Origin: a virus
Taxonomy: Duplodnaviria > Heunggongvirae > Uroviricota > Caudoviricetes
DNA: 8,047 bases
Reading direction: 5' to 3' (one strand)
Virus record (IMG/VR): IMGVR_UViG_2609459846_000016
The notes beneath the pieces were generated by a model that was not told the DNA's origin, did not search any database, and was given only the letters and a program-made list of their open reading frames with translations. Shown piece by piece: positions 1-8,047 of this stretch. The translations under genes and the position numbers were made by a program. The first letter of the stretch is position 1; the number at the start of each line of letters is the position of its first letter.

Positions 1-1
1 A

Positions 2-214
2 CTGACCAATCAGCTGGTGCAGACGGTAAGGGGGTATATCCGCGAATGCCTGCAATGGATGATTGATGACGGTGTGGTGTCCCGTATTGATCTGGATATC
101 CGCCGCACCGGGATTAATGAACTGGGTAACAGTATCACTCTCTGGCGACGTGACGGACCGGTAATGATTTCTTTTGATAATCTGTGGAGTGCGATAACGC
201 ATGGCGGACAGTGA
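2..214 (+). CDS. Phage baseplate protein, 3' end only (gene continues upstream of the window); probably the gp46/GPW-like wedge subunit that precedes gp47 in Mu-like tail modules
   Basis: Frame is open from the first base of the window to TGA at 212-214; the track shows only the last 65 aa (from an internal GTG at 17). It is co-oriented with the downstream baseplate J-like gene, whose ATG at 201 overlaps it by 14 nt. Identity is inferred from gene order only; I do not recognise motifs in the 70 visible residues. Confidence 0.45.
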   Translation: MTNQLVQTVRGYIRECLQWMIDDGVVSRIDLDIRRTGINELGNSITLWRRDGPVMISFDNLWSAITHGGQ

Positions 215-1283
215 ATTTCAGCGCCCGACGCTGGCAGAAAATATCAGTATGCTCCGTAACGATTTATTCGCCAGGCTGGACGTCAGTGACCCACTCCGGC
301 GCATGGATGAAGACGTGCGGGCAAAGGTGTATGCGGCGGCGCTGCATACGGTTTACGGTTACATCGATTATCTGGCAATGAACATACTGCCTGACCGGTG
401 TGATGAATCCTGGCTGGCGCGACATGCTGCGATGAAACGGTGTCCGCGCAAGGGGGCCACGGCTGCCAGCGGGTATATGCGCTGGGAAGATGTCAGCGAT
501 GACCTGAAGGTGACCGCCGGGAGTGTTATTCAGCGCGATGACCTGGTTCAGTACACAGCAACTGCCGATGCAACCAGCTCCAGTGGTGTCCTGCGCGTGC
601 CGATCGCCTGCTCAACTGCAGGTGCGGTCGGTAATGCTGACGACGGTACGGCATTAATCCTGGTCACGCCGGTGAATGGTCTGCCGTCGTCTGGTGTGGC
701 TGATACCCTGACCGGCGGATTCGATACTGAAGATCTGGAAACGTGGCGCGCCCGCGTCATTGAGCGGTATTACTGGACGCCTCAGGGCGGGGCTGACGGG
801 GATTATGTCGTCTGGGCTAAAGAAGTGCCTGGTATTACGCGCGCATGGACATACCGTCACTGGAGAGGAATAGGAACGGTAGGGGTGATGGTGGCGACAA
901 ACGATCCGGAACATCCGGCTCCGGATGAAAGCGTCATTAATGCAGTCAGAGAGCACATTCTTCCTCTGACACCGGTTGCCGGAAGCGGATTGTATGTATT
1001 CGGTGCCACAGAAAAAGTCATCCCGATGACGATTGCATTATCGAAAGACACACCGCAGATCAGGACTGCAATAAAAGCAGAGCTGAATGCACTGATGTTA
1101 CGGGATGGTGTGCCAGAGGGGCGTATGTATCTGTCCAGAATCAGTGAGGCCATCAGTTTGTCTGCTGGTGAAGTGGCCCACCGGTTAATCGTCCCTTCAT
1201 CGGATATTGACCTGGGGGAGACCGAGCTTCCGGTGCTCGGCGAGATCACCTGGCAGGCTTATGACCCGGCAAGGAGTAAATAA
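201..1283 (+). CDS. Baseplate J / gp47-family baseplate assembly protein
   Basis: 360-aa ORF. The N-terminal region (MADSEFQRPTLAEN...VYGYIDYLAMNILPD...) matches the pattern I recall for Mu gp47 / P2 gpJ-type proteins. Its TAA stop (1281-1283) overlaps the next ATG (1283) as TAATG. GC is roughly 50-55 percent, like the other baseplate genes. Confidence 0.8.
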   Translation: MADSEFQRPTLAENISMLRNDLFARLDVSDPLRRMDEDVRAKVYAAALHTVYGYIDYLAMNILPDRCDESWLARHAAMKRCPRKGATAASGYMRWEDVSDDLKVTAGSVIQRDDLVQYTATADATSSSGVLRVPIACSTAGAVGNADDGTALILVTPVNGLPSSGVADTLTGGFDTEDLETWRARVIERYYWTPQGGADGDYVVWAKEVPGITRAWTYRHWRGIGTVGVMVATNDPEHPAPDESVINAVREHILPLTPVAGSGLYVFGATEKVIPMTIALSKDTPQIRTAIKAELNALMLRDGVPEGRMYLSRISEAISLSAGEVAHRLIVPSSDIDLGETELPVLGEITWQAYDPARSK

Positions 1284-2242
1284 TGGATTCGTTACAGGAT
1301 GATTATAAAAAGCTGCTGTACGGACTGATGCCGCCGGGGCCTGCATGGAGCGATACCGACGGCGTGCTTGATGGTCTGGCACCATCGCTTGTACGTGTTC
1401 ATCAGCGGGCTGATGAACTGATGGCTGAAATCGATCCTGGTCAGTCAACAGAGCTGATTGAACGTTATGAAGAATTGTATGGTTTACCTGACACCTGCTC
1501 TCCTGTTGGAGCCCAGACATTACGCCAGCGTCAGCAACGGCTGGAAGCAAAAGCCAATGTGGCTGGTGGCATAAATGAGCAGTTCTTCCTGGAGCAGCTT
1601 GAGGCGCTGGGATATACCGGCGTGACGATCGAACAGTTCCAGCACCTGGATGCAAGCCCCGATCCGGAATGGGGTGATCGCTGGCGTTATTTCTGGCGTG
1701 TGACGTTGCCGGTGGATGCCGGTGCTCAGTGGCAGACATGTTCGGACACCTGTAACACACCGATCCGGACGTGGGGTGATACGGTTGCGGAATGCGTGAT
1801 TAATAAATTATGTCCGTCGCATACTGTTGTCCTTTTTGCATATCCGGATGAGTCTGGTGAAGTGCAACAAGCCGCCCTGACTATAAACAGCCTCTCCTTT
1901 CAGGCCGGACACAAGACGACTGAGCCATTAGCGATTAATCATACAGGTGTTCATTTTGCGGTTGTTCCGGCACTGACAGGTAAGCCGCTGACAATTAACC
2001 GGATTAACTTTTATGCCGCCCGTCCGATGGCAGAGCCACTGGTACTCAGCAGGGCGCAATTGCACTCAGGTCTGCCGACAACGGACCCCATGACCATGAA
2101 CAGCGCACAGTTGCAGACGGGATACAGGACCCGCTCCCCCGTACCAGTTAACAGTATGCAGTTGCAGACAGCCAGCAGACCCCGTGAACCGTTATTGATT
2201 AATCACCCGGGACTGCATTTTGCTGTGGTCACGTCCGAATGA
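1283..2242 (+). CDS. DUF2313/YmfQ-like phage tail protein (Mu gp48 / P2 gpI position) with a ~125-aa repeat-containing C-terminal extension
   Basis: 319-aa ORF with AAGGAG at 1271-1276, 6 nt before the ATG. N-terminal residues 1 to ~190 (LLYGLMPPGPAW ... ELIERYEELYGLPD ...) resemble YmfQ-type proteins, which I recall as ~190-200 aa. Residues ~195-319 carry internal repeats: EPLAINHTGVHFAVV and EPLLINHPGLHFAVV, and four copies of an xTxNSxQLQ-type unit. The matching DNA-level direct repeats are visible at about 1921-1975 and 2183-2240. Confidence 0.75.
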   Translation: MDSLQDDYKKLLYGLMPPGPAWSDTDGVLDGLAPSLVRVHQRADELMAEIDPGQSTELIERYEELYGLPDTCSPVGAQTLRQRQQRLEAKANVAGGINEQFFLEQLEALGYTGVTIEQFQHLDASPDPEWGDRWRYFWRVTLPVDAGAQWQTCSDTCNTPIRTWGDTVAECVINKLCPSHTVVLFAYPDESGEVQQAALTINSLSFQAGHKTTEPLAINHTGVHFAVVPALTGKPLTINRINFYAARPMAEPLVLSRAQLHSGLPTTDPMTMNSAQLQTGYRTRSPVPVNSMQLQTASRPREPLLINHPGLHFAVVTSE

Positions 2243-2265
2243 CATAAAATAAAAGGAGAGCCGCT

Positions 2266-3315
2266 TTGAATATTATTAAACTCGAAAGTTTTCGACAAAT
2301 TCCGGCGAATGAGGGATTGTGCGAGAACTATTATTCAACAAATATTATTTCAGCACTGAACGAAAACGGTGTCACGCTTATCAATGATATGTCCGGTTCT
2401 GTAACATCCGTCTGTCGTGGCACTCAGGCCGTAAATACTGTAGAAAGAACGGGGCTGATTTTTACGACACCCTCATATGTCACACTGTACAGCACACTTC
2501 CGGACTTAAAAGCCTCAGCTGTACAGCTGGGATTTCGTCTGACATTAAGTGCGGGAAAGAAATATTCATCTTCGCCATCCCACATCAGGATTAATGGCTA
2601 TTCATTTACAACCCCGTATCCTGATGAAGCAGCCAGTTATTACTATGAAATTTTCGCAACGCGAAACGAAAACGGCTATGTCTCAGCCAGTCTGTACTGC
2701 AACCGCTCATTAGTTGGAAATGCATCGTTTTATGTATCAGATGACCGGACTGACAAAATTCAGGTGAGTATTGGTAGTGGTGACAATATTTTTTCATCGG
2801 GTGCATCCGGCACGTTAATGCTGGGTGATATGTACTGTGGAACAGTGACATACGGTAGAAATAATAGTGCAGAACCCGCCCTGCTCGGAAGCATTGAGGT
2901 CAGATACAGCCCGGTAACGGCATTTACCGGTGGAAGCGCCAAAAACTCACTGAATAAAGATATTGTCACGGGGCTGAACACCTCTGACAGCGAGGCCGGA
3001 TATCTGATGCTCTCGCCCTCCCTGAATGCAGCACAGGCCACGTTTGGTGCGGTGGATAACAGCAACAGTGATGTTGTGGCTGTTATGGCCTCGGTCACTT
3101 ACCGCGGTGCTGATGCCCCCAATAACCGCCTGGCCTGGAAAGTGAAAAATGGCAGCCATGCAGGCGCAACGATTACAGAGAATGGCGTACAAAGCGACAC
3201 AAACAGCTGGACGACTGTCTCACAGAGTTTTATGGCCCAGCCAGGCGGAGAAACGCCTTTCACAAAGGGTGAACTGACTTTCACAGCGGAATTGTTTAAT
3301 CAGGCAAGGACATAA
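2266..3315 (+). CDS. Hypothetical protein, 349 aa, Ser/Thr/Asn/Gly/Tyr-rich; probable tail-associated or receptor-binding accessory protein, or a horizontally acquired cargo gene
   Basis: Long ORF starting at TTG 2266 with AGGAG at 2254-2258 (7-nt spacer). It sits 23 nt after the DUF2313 gene and 30 nt before the fibre gene, on the same strand. GC is visibly lower (about 40-45 percent) than the baseplate genes. No hydrophobic N-terminus or transmembrane stretch; composition suggests a beta-rich protein. I recognise no family. Confidence 0.6.
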   Translation: MNIIKLESFRQIPANEGLCENYYSTNIISALNENGVTLINDMSGSVTSVCRGTQAVNTVERTGLIFTTPSYVTLYSTLPDLKASAVQLGFRLTLSAGKKYSSSPSHIRINGYSFTTPYPDEAASYYYEIFATRNENGYVSASLYCNRSLVGNASFYVSDDRTDKIQVSIGSGDNIFSSGASGTLMLGDMYCGTVTYGRNNSAEPALLGSIEVRYSPVTAFTGGSAKNSLNKDIVTGLNTSDSEAGYLMLSPSLNAAQATFGAVDNSNSDVVAVMASVTYRGADAPNNRLAWKVKNGSHAGATITENGVQSDTNSWTTVSQSFMAQPGGETPFTKGELTFTAELFNQART

Positions 3316-3345
3316 TTCTGATATTTCATTCACGGGAGGTTTAAT

Positions 3346-4455
3346 ATGCACAGAATTGACACTCCGACAGCAGTTAAAGATAAATTTGGCCCGGGCAAGA
3401 ACGGATTTACTGACGGGAATATTCGTACAGGGCGTCATGCCACCTGGCTGAACAGTGCCATGTGGGATGCCCTTCAGGAGGAAATCTGTGGTGTCATTGA
3501 GAAGGCCGGGATAGAACTGAATAAAGAGGAACACGACCAGTTATATAAAGCCATATTATTACTGGTGGGCGGTGCAATTAACGAAGAGGCATTGCTGATA
3601 AAAAATAATCTTTCGGATGTCGAAGACAGTGATGAGGCTGTTGAAAACCTCGGATTAAAACCCACGGTGGATAAGGCAAAAAATGCCGTTCAGCGTGATG
3701 GAGACACCATGACCGGGGAGCTGAAAATCAGTGGTGTTAATGCACTGAGGATTTTCAACGAAGCCTTTGGTCTGATTTTTCGTCGTTCGGAAGAGTGTCT
3801 GCACCTCATTCCTACCCGGGAAAATCAGGGCGAGAGTGGTGATATTGGGCCGCTACGCCCCTTTACGCTTAATCTCAGGACCGGTCGCATAACTATGGGA
3901 CACGGTCTGGATGTTACAGAAGATGTATTTGCAGGCCGTTTAGCGATTAACAGCAGTAACGGAACGTGGATTCAGATGCGTGACAACAACGTTATTTTCG
4001 GGAAAAACAGGATAAATACTGATGCTGCTCAGGCGCTTCTGCGTCAGGATCATGCAGACAGAAAGTATTTCCTGGCTGGTCTTGGGAATAAGCAGTTTGG
4101 CATTTACATGATAAATAATAGCCGTACGGATAATGGTACGGACGGTCAGGCGTATATGGATGATGCGGGAAACTGGCGATGCGGGCGTCAGGTTATACCG
4201 TCAGACTACGGAAACTTCGATGCCCGCTACCAGACCAAAACAGGTGGCGTACAGAATTTTCAGTATACCAGTGAGGTGTTTTACAACCCGGGCGGGAACG
4301 AGCACAGCTGGACGTTTCGAGCACCTTCTGGTTGTGTTTTGTCAGGCATTAATGTTCAGGATACTGGCCGTAACTCTGCAGACAATATCGGTGGCGTGTA
4401 TTACAAACAGGCTCAGATTTATATTAATGGTGCATGGCGATCTGTATCAGGTTAA
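3346..4455 (+). CDS. Phage tail fibre protein (Mu S / P2 gpH-like)
   Basis: 369-aa ORF with GGGAGG at 3334-3339 before the ATG. Motifs shared with tail fibres as I recall them: ALLIKNNLSD, ENLGLKPTV...NAVQRDGDTMTGELKI (compare P2 H LGLQETVNRAGNAVQKNGDTLSGGL) and a C-terminal ...IYINGAWRSV. The ENLGL motif at 3641-3667 is the usual constant/variable junction. Confidence 0.85.
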   Translation: MHRIDTPTAVKDKFGPGKNGFTDGNIRTGRHATWLNSAMWDALQEEICGVIEKAGIELNKEEHDQLYKAILLLVGGAINEEALLIKNNLSDVEDSDEAVENLGLKPTVDKAKNAVQRDGDTMTGELKISGVNALRIFNEAFGLIFRRSEECLHLIPTRENQGESGDIGPLRPFTLNLRTGRITMGHGLDVTEDVFAGRLAINSSNGTWIQMRDNNVIFGKNRINTDAAQALLRQDHADRKYFLAGLGNKQFGIYMINNSRTDNGTDGQAYMDDAGNWRCGRQVIPSDYGNFDARYQTKTGGVQNFQYTSEVFYNPGGNEHSWTFRAPSGCVLSGINVQDTGRNSADNIGGVYYKQAQIYINGAWRSVSG

Positions 4456-4469
4456 TTAAGGAGAAAATA

Positions 4470-5000
4470 ATGGAACTCTCAAACATTACGCGTTACTACC
4501 CTGAAGACATGCCTTATGGTGACGGCATTCAGTATTTCCGTAGTGAAGACGGGCAGGATTTTTATGAATCACTGGATAAATTCACGAAGAAATACAAGCT
4601 GTGCACGCATCCTGAAACCGGCGTTATTTATTCCGTGGCGGAAGATGTATCCCGTCTTTATCCCGTTGGTTTTACCATTGTGGAAGTGGATGAACTACCG
4701 GATGGTTTTTGTATAGAGGCGCGCTGGTATTATAAAGACGGTGAAGTACTACCGGTCCCTGTTGATTACAGGCAGCAGGCAGAGTCGGAGCGTGCACGTC
4801 TTACTGCGATTGCTGAACGGGAAATATCCGATAAGAAGACGGATTTACTTTTGGGAATCATCGGTGATGAAGAAAAAGAAAAGCTGACAGTCTGGCGCAT
4901 TTACGCGAAATTGCTGCAGGCGATGGATTTCAGCACCATCACTGATAAAACCTCATATAACGCCATTGAATGGCCCGTCTCTCCGGAAGCCTCTTCCTGA
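4470..5000 (+). CDS. Tail fibre assembly protein (Tfa / Mu U / P2 gpG-like chaperone)
   Basis: 176 aa. ATG at 4470 is preceded by AGGAG at 4459-4463 and lies 14 nt after the fibre stop. The C-terminus (...KLTVWRIYAKLLQAMDFSTITDKTSYNAIEWPVSP) matches the conserved Tfa C-terminus, for example lambda Tfa ...APDIEWPAVP as I recall. The track start at 4434 overlaps the fibre gene and has no RBS, so 4470 is preferred. Confidence 0.85.
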   Translation: MELSNITRYYPEDMPYGDGIQYFRSEDGQDFYESLDKFTKKYKLCTHPETGVIYSVAEDVSRLYPVGFTIVEVDELPDGFCIEARWYYKDGEVLPVPVDYRQQAESERARLTAIAEREISDKKTDLLLGIIGDEEKEKLTVWRIYAKLLQAMDFSTITDKTSYNAIEWPVSPEASS

Positions 5001-5089
5001 TTTAATTTATCGCGAGAAAAATTATGTCTGTAGTGATATCAGGTGCGCTGACAGATGGCGCAGGCGCAGGTCGATCGCAATGACGAGAT

Positions 5090-5360
5090 TTATCGCCGTA
5101 GGAGGGAGATGAAGGAAGAACTGAGCAGTCTGGGGGATTTGAAGTCGATTAGGAATTTTATAGTGGAATAACAGAAGCCGCGGCACGTCGTATGCAAGAA
5201 CGCACCGCGGCAGGCACCAATATTTTTTGTGAAGGTATCTTTTCCCGGAATATCTGCGCCGTTCTGGTTTTTCTGTAATGCGCCAGAAGCCTGATTTACC
5301 GTTTCCTGTAAACCGAGGTTTTTGAGAATTGCCTCCGTGTCGTCTGAACGATATTTTTTC
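5090..5360 (-). pseudogene. Truncated remnant of an alternative tail-fibre segment (S'-like) in inverted orientation
   Basis: Minus-strand translation of about 5212-5360 gives KKYRSDDTEAILKNLGLQETVNQASGALQKNQNGADIPGKDTFTKNIGA, paralogous to the + strand fibre residues SDEAVENLGLKPTVDKAKNAVQRDGDTMTG. The frame then runs into non-fibre-like sequence and stops at 5090. There is no room for the rest of a fibre or a second assembly gene. The track ORF 5090..5467 starts inside the IS terminal repeats, so its first ~40 codons are not fibre-derived. Confidence 0.4.
5303..5328. other. Gin/Hin/Pin/Cin-family DNA-invertase crossover site (gix/hix-like)
   Basis: TTCCTGTAAACCGAGGTTTTTGAGAA is an imperfect palindrome about a central GA. 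It differs at 2 of 26 positions from the Mu gix sequence as I remember it (TTCCTGTAAACCGAGGTTTTGGATAA). On the minus strand it encodes N-L-G-L-Q-E, the fibre junction motif. Confidence 0.6.
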
Positions 5361-5409
5361 CCGCTTTCAGCAACAATCGCGGGCCAGAAAGTATGCAATA
5401 TAGTTATGT

Positions 5410-5542
5410 GCAAAATGGCATCTGAATCGATCGCAGTTTGGCATTCGAATCGATCATGATTTGGCATTCATCTCCGATCACAGTTTGGCATCACAATCGA
5501 TCACGATTTGGCATGCTTCCGATCATTGATTGGCATCCTGCC
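5410..5542. repeat. Left terminal multi-repeat array of the IS (5 tandem ~23-bp units plus a partial sixth)
   Basis: CGATC anchors at 5428, 5451, 5476, 5498 and 5520 (spacing 22-25 bp), each followed by (A/G)TTTGGCAT; a partial unit AAAATGGCATC lies at 5412-5422. Confidence 0.7.
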
Positions 5543-5610
5543 AGTCACTCCGGGAATTAACTCTTTTCACCACAGTCTCCATTGCCGTGTTTAAACCAGT
5601 GGAGACGTCA

Positions 5611-7176
5611 ATGTCCAGAAAGAGAAAATCCAGGAGCACTATGGAAACCTGTTTTAAGATCCTTCAGCTCAAGTTCGACAAGAAGCTGACTAACCGTTGT
5701 ATCGGACTGACGTTACACATCAGCGCCTCAACCGTTTTTGAGGTTCTTGCCCGCTTCAAAGCCTCTTCTCTGTCATGGCCATTACCTGCTGATATATCCC
5801 ATGACACGCTGGAGAAACTCATTTTTCCGCCCAAAGACACCTTTGCATCAGAGCTTGTAATGCCTGACATGTTGTACTTCGATACGGAAATGAGAAAACC
5901 AGGTGTGACGCGGCAACTGTTGTGGATGGAATACAAGGCACAGGCGGGTGACAAAGCGATGGGATACTCGCACTTCTGCCGTTGCTACCGGGAGTGGAAA
6001 AAAACGCGACGTCTCTCCATGCGCCAGGAGCATCGTGCCGGCGAAAAGCTTTTTATCGACTTCTGTGGTCCTACGGTTCCTGTTATTAATCCGGACACCG
6101 GTGAGATACGCCGCGTGGCAATCTTCGTGGCCGTAATGGGGGCGTCCAACTATACCTACGTTGAAGCGTGCGAAGGTCAGGACATGATGTCATGGTTAAA
6201 TGCCCACAGCCGTTGCCTGACCTTCCTGGGCGGCGTACCGAAGCTGCTCATCCCCGATAACCTCAGAAGCGCAGTGAAAAAGGCCGATCGCTATGAGCCT
6301 GTCATCAACGACAGTTATCAGGCACTGGCTGAGCACTATGGCACGGTTATCATCCCGGCCCGACCACGCAAACCTAAAGATAAACCAAAAGCAGAAAACG
6401 GCGTCCTCATCGTCGAACGATGGCTTCTTGCCCGCATCCGTAATGAAACCTTCCACACGCTCAGGGCGCTGAATGCGCGCCTTAGGGAGTTACTGACAGA
6501 CATGAATAACCGGCCAATGAAGGGGTACGGCAATCAAACCCGTGCAGAACGCTTCCGCATACTGGATGCGCCAGCACTCTCTCCGCTGCCTCTGGCACCT
6601 TATGAATACACGGAATACAAAGCTGTGAAGGTTGGCCCTGACTACCACGTTGAATATGCCCGTCACTGGTACTCCGTTCCACACGAACTGGTCGGTCAGC
6701 GTCTGTCACTGAAGGCGGGGCAGTCGGTGGTACAGCTCTGGCACAAGGGGCAGTGTGTGGCGCAACATCCGCGCAGCACACATGAATATAAACACACAAC
6801 CAATCCGCTTCACATGCCAGAGCGCCACCGGCAGCACGGGACATGGACACCGGAACGCCTGATCGAGCAGGGAAAACGTACGGGCCCGTCCACAGGCCGG
6901 GTGGTTGAATCCATGCTGAAGGCAAAACCCCATCCGGAACTGGCTTATCGTGCAGTTCTGGGGCTGCTGGCACTTCAGAAAAAATACGGCCCGGAACGGC
7001 TGGAAAAGGCCTGTTACGTTGCCCTGCACTATAACGCCCCTGACAGACGCTTTATCGACAATCTGCTGCGTCACCATCGGGAGAACCTGGAGCTTCCATT
7101 ATCCCGCCAGGGCGAACAACATCCGGCATATGCTTCAGAGCATGAAAACCTGCGTGGTCCGGGCTACTACCACTGA
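5611..7176 (+). CDS. istA: IS21-family transposase IstA (N-terminal HTH plus DDE integrase core)
   Basis: 521 aa from ATG 5611 (GGAGA at 5601-5605). Motifs typical of IstA: FIDFCGP, FVAVMGASNYTYVE, FLGGVPKLLIPDN, KPKAENGV. The track start at 5530 is a TTG inside the terminal repeats and is rejected. An alternative ATG at 5641 also has an AGGAG 4 nt upstream. Confidence 0.9.
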   Translation: MSRKRKSRSTMETCFKILQLKFDKKLTNRCIGLTLHISASTVFEVLARFKASSLSWPLPADISHDTLEKLIFPPKDTFASELVMPDMLYFDTEMRKPGVTRQLLWMEYKAQAGDKAMGYSHFCRCYREWKKTRRLSMRQEHRAGEKLFIDFCGPTVPVINPDTGEIRRVAIFVAVMGASNYTYVEACEGQDMMSWLNAHSRCLTFLGGVPKLLIPDNLRSAVKKADRYEPVINDSYQALAEHYGTVIIPARPRKPKDKPKAENGVLIVERWLLARIRNETFHTLRALNARLRELLTDMNNRPMKGYGNQTRAERFRILDAPALSPLPLAPYEYTEYKAVKVGPDYHVEYARHWYSVPHELVGQRLSLKAGQSVVQLWHKGQCVAQHPRSTHEYKHTTNPLHMPERHRQHGTWTPERLIEQGKRTGPSTGRVVESMLKAKPHPELAYRAVLGLLALQKKYGPERLEKACYVALHYNAPDRRFIDNLLRHHRENLELPLSRQGEQHPAYASEHENLRGPGYYH

Positions 7177-7192
7177 CAGAAGGAACAACAGT

Positions 7193-7948
7193 ATGAGTGA
7201 TAACCTGTTAAACAAACTGACCCAACTGAAACTCCCGGCGATGGCCGGGAGCCTGATACGGCAGCGGGAAACGCCTCAGACCTACGACGAACTGTCGTTC
7301 GAGGAAAGGCTGACGCTGCTGGTTGATGACGAGCTTCTGAGCAGGGAAAACAGCCGTGTGGCACGGTTGAGAAAAAATGCCGGCCTGAAATACCAGGCAA
7401 CACCGGAAGGGCTGCGCTATCCGGCCTCAAGAGGTCTGCGGGCTGAACAGATGAGAGAACTGCTGAACGGCCACTACATAACCCACAGGAAAAACCTGCT
7501 GATAACCGGTCCGACAGGATGTGGCAAGAGCTGGATAGCCAATGCACTGGGCGAACAGGCATGTCGACAGAAACACAGCGTCCGGTACTGTAGAACCGGG
7601 CGATTACTGGAACAACTGGCTCAGGGACGTGTTGATGGCAGCTGGCTGAAATATCTGAAACAGTTGCAAAAAATACAGGTTCTAATCCTGGACGATCTGG
7701 GGCTGGAACAGTTAAGTAACGCCCAGTGTAATGACCTTCTGGAGCTCATAGAGGATCGTTACGGACAAAGCAGCACGATAGTGGTAAGTCAGTTCCCGGT
7801 AGATAAATGGCATGGTCTGATGGAGAACCCAACAACAGCAGATGCCATCCTGGACAGACTGGTACATAACTCACACCGGGTGGTCCTTCAGGGAGAGTCA
7901 CTGAGGAAAAATCCCCCGGTAGTGGAAAGCAGCGAAAAAACGCGTTAA
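7193..7948 (+). CDS. istB: IS21-family helper ATPase IstB (DnaC-like AAA+)
   Basis: 251 aa from ATG 7193, 16 nt after the istA stop. Walker A GPTGCGKS and Walker B VLILDDLG are present. The track ORF begins at 6950, overlapping istA; 7193 is preferred. Confidence 0.9.
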   Translation: MSDNLLNKLTQLKLPAMAGSLIRQRETPQTYDELSFEERLTLLVDDELLSRENSRVARLRKNAGLKYQATPEGLRYPASRGLRAEQMRELLNGHYITHRKNLLITGPTGCGKSWIANALGEQACRQKHSVRYCRTGRLLEQLAQGRVDGSWLKYLKQLQKIQVLILDDLGLEQLSNAQCNDLLELIEDRYGQSSTIVVSQFPVDKWHGLMENPTTADAILDRLVHNSHRVVLQGESLRKNPPVVESSEKTR

Positions 7949-7974
7949 AAAGCGGTAGAAAAAGTTAAGTTCCC

Positions 7975-8047
7975 GGTTGATCGAATGGATGCGAATCGCT
8001 GATCGGACTTCGATGCCAATCCGTGATCGAATAGAGCGGAATACGCA
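7975..8047. repeat. Right-end terminal repeats of the IS (inverted copies of the left-end unit), truncated by the window edge
   Basis: The reverse complement of 8004-8027 is CGATCACGGATTGGCATCGAAGTC, and of about 7983-8003 is CGATCAGCGATTCGCATCCAT. Both match the left-end unit in inverted orientation. Only two units are visible before the window ends. Confidence 0.6.

Follow-up and report, generated by a model that had tools for sequence, protein, structure and literature searches.

Three described groups of invertible tail-fibre systems lie close to the locus studied here: the G segment of phage Mu, with its sites gixL and gixR and its invertase Gin; the B-segment (PinB) systems of Shigella boydii (bixL/bixR), the E. 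coli plasmid pL25922_3 and the Yersinia phage vB_YpM_39; and the P segment of the e14 prophage of E. coli K-12 (stfP-tfaP / tfaE-stfE, pinE). Din invertases complement one another, and decayed relics of the Pin type are well known from E. coli prophages. In the intact systems (Mu, pL25922_3 and vB_YpM_39), invertase dimers bind two 26-bp sites in inverted orientation, while an enhancer bound by Fis, ∼100 bp from one of the sites and within the 5' end of the invertase gene, assembles the invertasome. The central GA is cut at both sites and one half rotated by 180 degrees (subunit rotation) before religation, with the outcome that the constant N-terminus of the fibre is joined to the other C-terminus and the chaperone is swapped too. 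The Hin enhancer lies about 100 bp from hixL (PMC3798978). By homology, the ancestral switch at the present locus would have worked in the manner of Gin and Hin.

The recombinase of pL25922_3 is intact at 184 aa, and contains the PF00239 (Resolvase) and PF02796 (HTH_7) domains. Its identity with Gin is 54% and with PinE 60%; the left site of this plasmid is identical to bixL. The invertase of vB_YpM_39 is 99.5% identical to this lineage, with a spacing of 64 nt from site to ATG. Comparing vB_YpM_39 with its close relative vB_YpM_44, we observe that two chaperone genes, of 528 nt and 534 nt, occupy swapped positions between the crossover sites, which may suggest that an active segment stands in opposite orientations in the two phages, with cassettes that are only ∼81–85% identical. 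The U/U' regions of these two phages align at 84.6% in reverse and 81% in the forward direction, but the cassettes differ, and the comparison falls short of proving inversion. The nearest named phage to our locus is the Stx2e phage phiP27 (genes L54-L57), whose baseplate and fibre DNA is ∼89–91% identical.

The stretch of DNA analysed, referred to below as the window, comprises 8,047 nucleotides of IMG/VR virus record IMGVR_UViG_2609459846_000016. Its features are as follows.

201-1283: baseplate J.
1283-2242: gp48/YmfQ-like baseplate wedge ORF, a pseudogene in the RefSeq annotation of identical relatives.
2266-3315: 349-aa ORF of unknown function, with no Pfam match; corresponds to phrog_8291.
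3346-4455, plus strand: expressed tail fibre, 369 aa (phrog_6859 tail fiber, E=1e-170), annotated by RefSeq in identical relatives.
3638-3663, plus strand: degenerate partner-site candidate within the fibre gene, CTGTTGAAAACC TC GGATTAAAACCC, encoding ENLGLKP (inverted repeat I1).
4470-5000, plus strand: gene for the assembly chaperone of the expressed tail fibre (PF02413 Caudo_TAP, E=1e-21), with an equivalent RefSeq CDS in the relative L001.
5055-5215, plus strand: fragment that aligns with phiP27 from the 3' end of L57 onward (90.7% identity to positions 7629-7789 of the phiP27 locus, L020).
5206-5302, minus strand: relic of an alternative fibre C-terminus (Sv') of which only 32 codons remain, counted from the junction (ETVNQASGALQKNQNGADIPGKDTFTKNIG...); identity is 96.9% with pL25922_3 Sv' and 94% with Mu S'.
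5303-5328, plus strand: 26-bp crossover site of the Din family (gix/bix-type, GA core), TTCCTGTAAACCGAGGTTTTTGAGAA, assigned by weight matrix and published sites.
5329-5392, plus strand: 64-nt spacer between site and invertase start, 92.2% identical to that of pL25922_3; the spacing is equal in pL25922_3 and vB_YpM_39.
5393-5408, plus strand: beginning of a serine DNA-invertase pseudogene (16 nt, ATGCAATATAGTTATG), aligning with the start of the intact 184-aa pL25922_3 recombinase.
5409-8047, plus strand: IS21-family insertion sequence, ISSso4-like (istA 5608-7176, istB 7190-7948; Pfam rve/Mu-transpos_C_2 and IstB_IS21).

Baseplate J, Mu gp48/YmfQ, a short fibre starting MHRIDT and Tfa follow one another in that order. 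The window belongs to a phiP27-like prophage of E. coli whose tail module is Mu-like, and covers the end that carries the tail fibre. The e14 prophage has the same Mu-like tail module order, and shares with the window the succession of baseplate J, YmfQ/gp48, an MHRIDT... short fibre with an ENLGL junction, Tfa, an inverted cassette and an invertase at the prophage end. Its pix sites, however, have an AA core and 7–8 mismatches to the site in the window, and pinE is intact in K-12. The fibre at 3346-4455 has a conserved N-terminal part running from aa 1 to ∼103 and ending ...AVENLGL, followed by a variable C-terminal part; its N-terminal 130 aa are 95.4% identical to phiP27 L54. Unlike our locus, phiP27 has no right site, Sv' relic or invertase, and it retains L56-L57 while lacking a counterpart of window positions 1852-3336. 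Within 1852-3336 lie the 349-aa ORF and a C-terminal extension, ∼130 aa long, of the gp48/YmfQ-like ORF, in which the motif PL(A/L)INH(T/P)G(V/L)HFAVV occurs twice. About a dozen complete E. coli genomes are 99–100% identical to positions 1-5410 of the window, where the match stops; none of the complete E. coli genomes covers 80% or more of the window.

In the site at 5303-5328 a central GA is flanked by 12-bp half-sites, TTCCTGTAAACC and TTCTCAAAAACC (the reverse complement of GGTTTTTGAGAA). For comparison with known sites of the Din family we used the published table (PMC3241671, Table 3), together with the Mu sites read from NC_000929, and built a weight matrix from 19 distinct published half-sites. 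By this matrix the site scores 29.3 bits, within the range of published sites (17.1–31.0 bits), while the highest score among 200 shuffled windows was 18.0 bits; matching of the 26-mer itself with three or fewer mismatches occurred in none of 200 dinucleotide shuffles. The sequence shared by Mu gixL and gixR, TTCCTGTAAACCGAGGTTTTGGATAA (NC_000929), which straddles both annotated boundaries of the G segment, differs from the site at 2 of 26 positions, the left half-site and GA core being identical (24/26 overall). Shigella boydii bixR shows 2 mismatches and bixL 3, hixL (TTCTTGAAAACCAAGGTTTTTGATAA; PMC3241671, Table 3) shows 4 of 26, and the cix, pix and mix sites show 7–10. The closest of all is the site that adjoins the intact invertase of the Yersinia phage vB_YpM_39, with a single mismatch. 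Both its score and its mismatches to gix and bixR (2/26) place the sequence in the Din family, and as a 26-bp site it is, to judge by its letters, as good as functional sites.

The minus strand across the site reads ...ILKNLGLQETVNQ... and encodes ...KNLGLQETVNQ..., the same fibre junction as in Mu S (...IQNLGLQETVN...) and e14 StfP (...ENLGLGEG...). The NLGLQETVN junction is shared with Mu exactly, and beyond it, at the S'/gixR junction, the DNA is 94% identical to Mu over the first ∼100 nt of S'. Thus the site occupies the position between constant and variable parts of a fibre, the variable part here being the 32-codon relic only. The sequence-only reading had recognised most of this: a near-consensus Gin/Hin/Pin-type site, with 12-bp inverted half-sites around GA, two differences from Mu gix, a resemblance to hixL and NLGLQE on the minus strand at a fibre junction. 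Each of these points held when set against the deposited and published sequences, the exact 26-mer and both half-sites being present as quoted, and the alignment to published gix, hix, cix and pix sites that it proposed gives a score inside their range. The combination that it named as fatal to the idea, poor similarity with neither an invertase nor a second site nearby, is not what we find. We regard the sequence at 5303-5328 as very probably the right-hand crossover site of a Fis-dependent serine-invertase switch of the Gin/PinB type, now a fossil, which would once have swapped the receptor-binding C-terminal portion of a tail fibre together with its chaperone.

The same reading had reported no serine-recombinase ORF in any frame. 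It was correct that the window holds no intact one, but it overlooked the first 16 nt of such a gene at 5393-5408. The start codon of the invertase is at 5393, at the canonical 64-nt distance from the site, and the gene is cut in codon 6 by the insertion sequence, 16 nt past the start codon and 93 bp from the point of crossover. As in Mu, the order is Sv' on the minus strand, site, invertase, and the identity between window positions 5206-5408 and the Sv'-site-spacer-invertase junction of pL25922_3 is 94.6%. By analogy with Mu and P1, the spacer would hold the promoter region of the invertase. The similarity to Mu does not extend to the spacer or to the lineage of the invertase: the relative of the window's invertase that is intact in pL25922_3 is 54% identical to Gin.

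Exact searches of genome contigs for the junction with the insertion sequence, and for the ORF that crosses it, gave no match, and relatives of the locus that are free of the insertion sequence served as proxies for the sequence past it. Eleven such loci with an identical site were found in E. coli genomes, both complete and draft, and on a single metagenome scaffold, nearly all of them adjoining potB, and in all 11 the site is followed by the same stub, MQYSYVMMSTFDQNMELQAEVLRW and a stop. The first 100 nt of the stub share 77% identity with the intact invertase gene, as against 92–97% for the neighbouring Sv' relic, site and spacer. The stub has lost the conserved Arg8 to Met (R8M), has a stop at codon 25, and shows no homology beyond ∼100 nt; there is no recombinase gene between fibre and potB in the IS-free loci examined. 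No intact serine invertase, with catalytic Ser and Arg and a C-terminal HTH, therefore adjoins the site, unlike the PinB/B-segment systems of pL25922_3 and vB_YpM_39, which have an intact 184-aa invertase and complete cassettes where the lineage of the window has a stub of ∼100 nt. Because the IS-free relatives carry this decayed stub, the invertase was, by this comparison, already decayed and truncated before the IS inserted. Past the right end of the IS we would expect the 5-bp duplication TTATG and then the decayed stub, TGATGATGTCAACTTTTGACC..., with debris of tail-fibre-assembly genes and potB after it. A Gin/Pin-family gene, for which the sequence-only reading had suggested searching the flanks, thus does begin at the site, but only as a ∼100-nt stub in the IS-free relatives.

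Little is left of the alternative fibre cassette. Inward of the site, homology to the intact systems (Mu and pL25922_3) ends at ∼5206, and RefSeq labels the Sv' relic as a phage tail protein with missing N- and C-terminus. The window contains no U', that is, no inverted chaperone gene on the minus strand, so that in place of two opposed cassettes of fibre C-terminus and chaperone we find one such cassette and 32 codons of Sv'. Adjacent to the relic, the RefSeq DUF4376 fragment corresponds to 5055-5171, and is annotated as a pseudogene in the relative L001. We also observe a deletion of the interior of L56-L57, the second pair of fibre genes in phiP27: positions 4852-5065 match the end of L55 and the start of L56, and between this match and that to the end of L57 (5055-5215) ∼1.9 kb of phiP27 is missing.

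In Mu both sites are present along with full Sv'/U' cassettes and an intact gin, whereas in the window only the right site is intact. A second site was found neither at three or fewer mismatches nor at eight or fewer, and there is no second full inverted site with an identical core. The sequence-only reading had proposed looking for both orientations across 3600-5330, and a candidate with a matching core does lie near 3600, at 3638-3663. This candidate is inverted relative to 5303-5328, has an equal core (TC = GA), and has the 10-mer AAAACCTCGG in common with it. It is, however, degenerate, its outer half-site being fair and its inner half-site lost, and phiP27, a phage with no inversion system, carries the identical sequence. 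Its score of 11.1 bits (10.3 + 0.8) lies below all published sites (≥17.1 bits) and within the shuffle maxima. For these reasons the candidate, which arose from an inverted-repeat match at 3644-3677, was judged degenerate. A weak left site may nonetheless be workable, given that hixR and some mix sites function with one poor half-site (17.1–17.3 bits). Two other sequences were set aside. The 26-mer TTATTAAACTCGAAAGTTTTCGACAA at 2273-2298, at the start of the 349-aa ORF, scores 13.4 bits, inside the span of the shuffle maxima, with an incompatible AA core and is probably due to chance, and the short inverted repeat I2 (3675-3693 / 5344-5362) is not symmetric about both sites and was also taken as chance.

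Evidence for inversion was sought in natural sequences. The inverted junction built from both cores is spanned by no record in 5,426 complete E. coli genomes, matches ending at the core, and among the IS-free loci retrieved with the site, all 11 have the orientation of the window. The position expected for the enhancer by analogy with Hin, from ∼5415 (PMC3798978), is occupied by the IS, whose insertion point falls where the near edge of the enhancer would lie; Fis sites are too degenerate for reliable scoring. The switch appears to be dead in three independent ways: the invertase is a stub cut by the IS, the cassette is deleted, and the inner half-site of the partner is lost. We infer the inactivity of the relic from its sequence and from the lack of inverted forms. 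Because invertase, spare cassette and one site have been lost, the fibre gene would be locked in one orientation.

Our overall account, in which we have high confidence, is of a genuine Din site left behind by the ordinary prophage decay of a host-range switch. The flank homology, the 64-nt spacing and the invertase start all support the earlier proposal of a former or crippled invertible host-range switch. We have considered whether the site could be something else altogether, a chance likeness or mere conservation of the NLGL coding motif, unrelated to invertase sites, and give this virtually no credence. NLGL is conserved as a protein motif and occurs in the fibre of phiP27 without any invertase, but zero such matches are expected by chance, the DNA identity to gix spans both half-sites, including the outer half that is not constrained by coding, and the start of an invertase gene lies at the canonical 64-nt distance. 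Chance resemblance is refuted by the identity to Mu gix, the alignment of the invertase start and the weight-matrix score. A possible, if doubtful, alternative is that a fragment of a foreign Mu/P1/PinB-type module (Sv' start, site and invertase start) recombined onto the right end of the prophage and was dead on arrival. The relic is placed and oriented as is canonical for the right-hand boundary of an invertible fibre segment: Sv', on the minus strand, faces the fibre operon, and the invertase points outward. Yet phiP27, and prophages like that of strain AST217, match the window only to ∼5215, beyond which they run into right ends of their own that have neither site nor invertase. Similarly, the left candidate can be read both ways, having the uncommon GA core and the 10-mer in common with the right site, but being identical in phiP27. 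A mosaic of debris past the stub in the IS-free relatives (tail-fibre-assembly fragments and a methyltransferase) would suit an import, while e14, with the same tail module and type of fibre N-terminus, has a working Pin switch. Position, orientation and the shared GA core favour the side of a resident switch.

The site might still be used by a Din invertase from elsewhere in the genome, such as a Pin-type prophage or a P1-like plasmid, acting in trans. We consider this very improbable, and the same applies to its products, namely low-frequency inversion of 3651-5315 (fibre off) or recombination with other GA-core sites. The 26-bp site is of full strength, and the left candidate matches its core and offers one fair half-site, but that left site falls 6 bits under the weakest published site, the inverted product would be a truncated fibre, and the enhancer position is disrupted by the IS next to a stub that is decayed and truncated. 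The inverted junction is, moreover, absent from the 5,426 complete genomes and from the 11 IS-free loci. That a Din invertase elsewhere in the host recognises the relic site and gives rare inversions, using either the weak fibre-gene site or another GA-core site in the chromosome as partner, we hold to be more improbable still; if true, it would provide an "off" switch for the fibre, or lead to large rearrangements of the chromosome between relics of prophages. In principle, orphan sites of full strength could serve invertases from other prophages or plasmids, although nothing in the present data points to this.

Returning to the decay of a resident switch, the locus illustrates how a host-range switch may decay in a resident prophage, with recombinase, cassette and one site gone and the other 26-bp site intact. 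It adds an unannotated recombination site and an invertase stub to a group of mostly ETEC-associated E. coli prophages. Beyond annotation the significance is slight, the locus being one more case of an already known kind.

In the IS-free relatives, between the stub and potB (L001 11500-13050), we observe two C-terminal fragments of tail-fibre-assembly genes on the plus strand and, in the same interval, an intact class I SAM-dependent methyltransferase on the minus strand. This interval, at the end of the prophage, is a mosaic of debris and possible cargo.

The insertion sequence has the features of the IS21 family: istA (a DDE transposase), istB (an AAA+ helper), TG...CA termini and multiple terminal repeats. 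It is absent at this position from the complete E. coli genomes. Its termini, TGCAAAATGG...GAATACGCA, were fixed from three other copies with target duplications of 5–6 bp; such a duplication is visible only in these other copies, the window stopping at the end of the IS. Since the right end of the IS is the last base of the window (8047), we suggest that the contig break here is repeat-induced. At the left end of the element, five direct repeats of ∼23 bp (GATC(A/G)CAGTTTGGCAT-like, 5426-5537) are typical of the terminal repeats of IS21.
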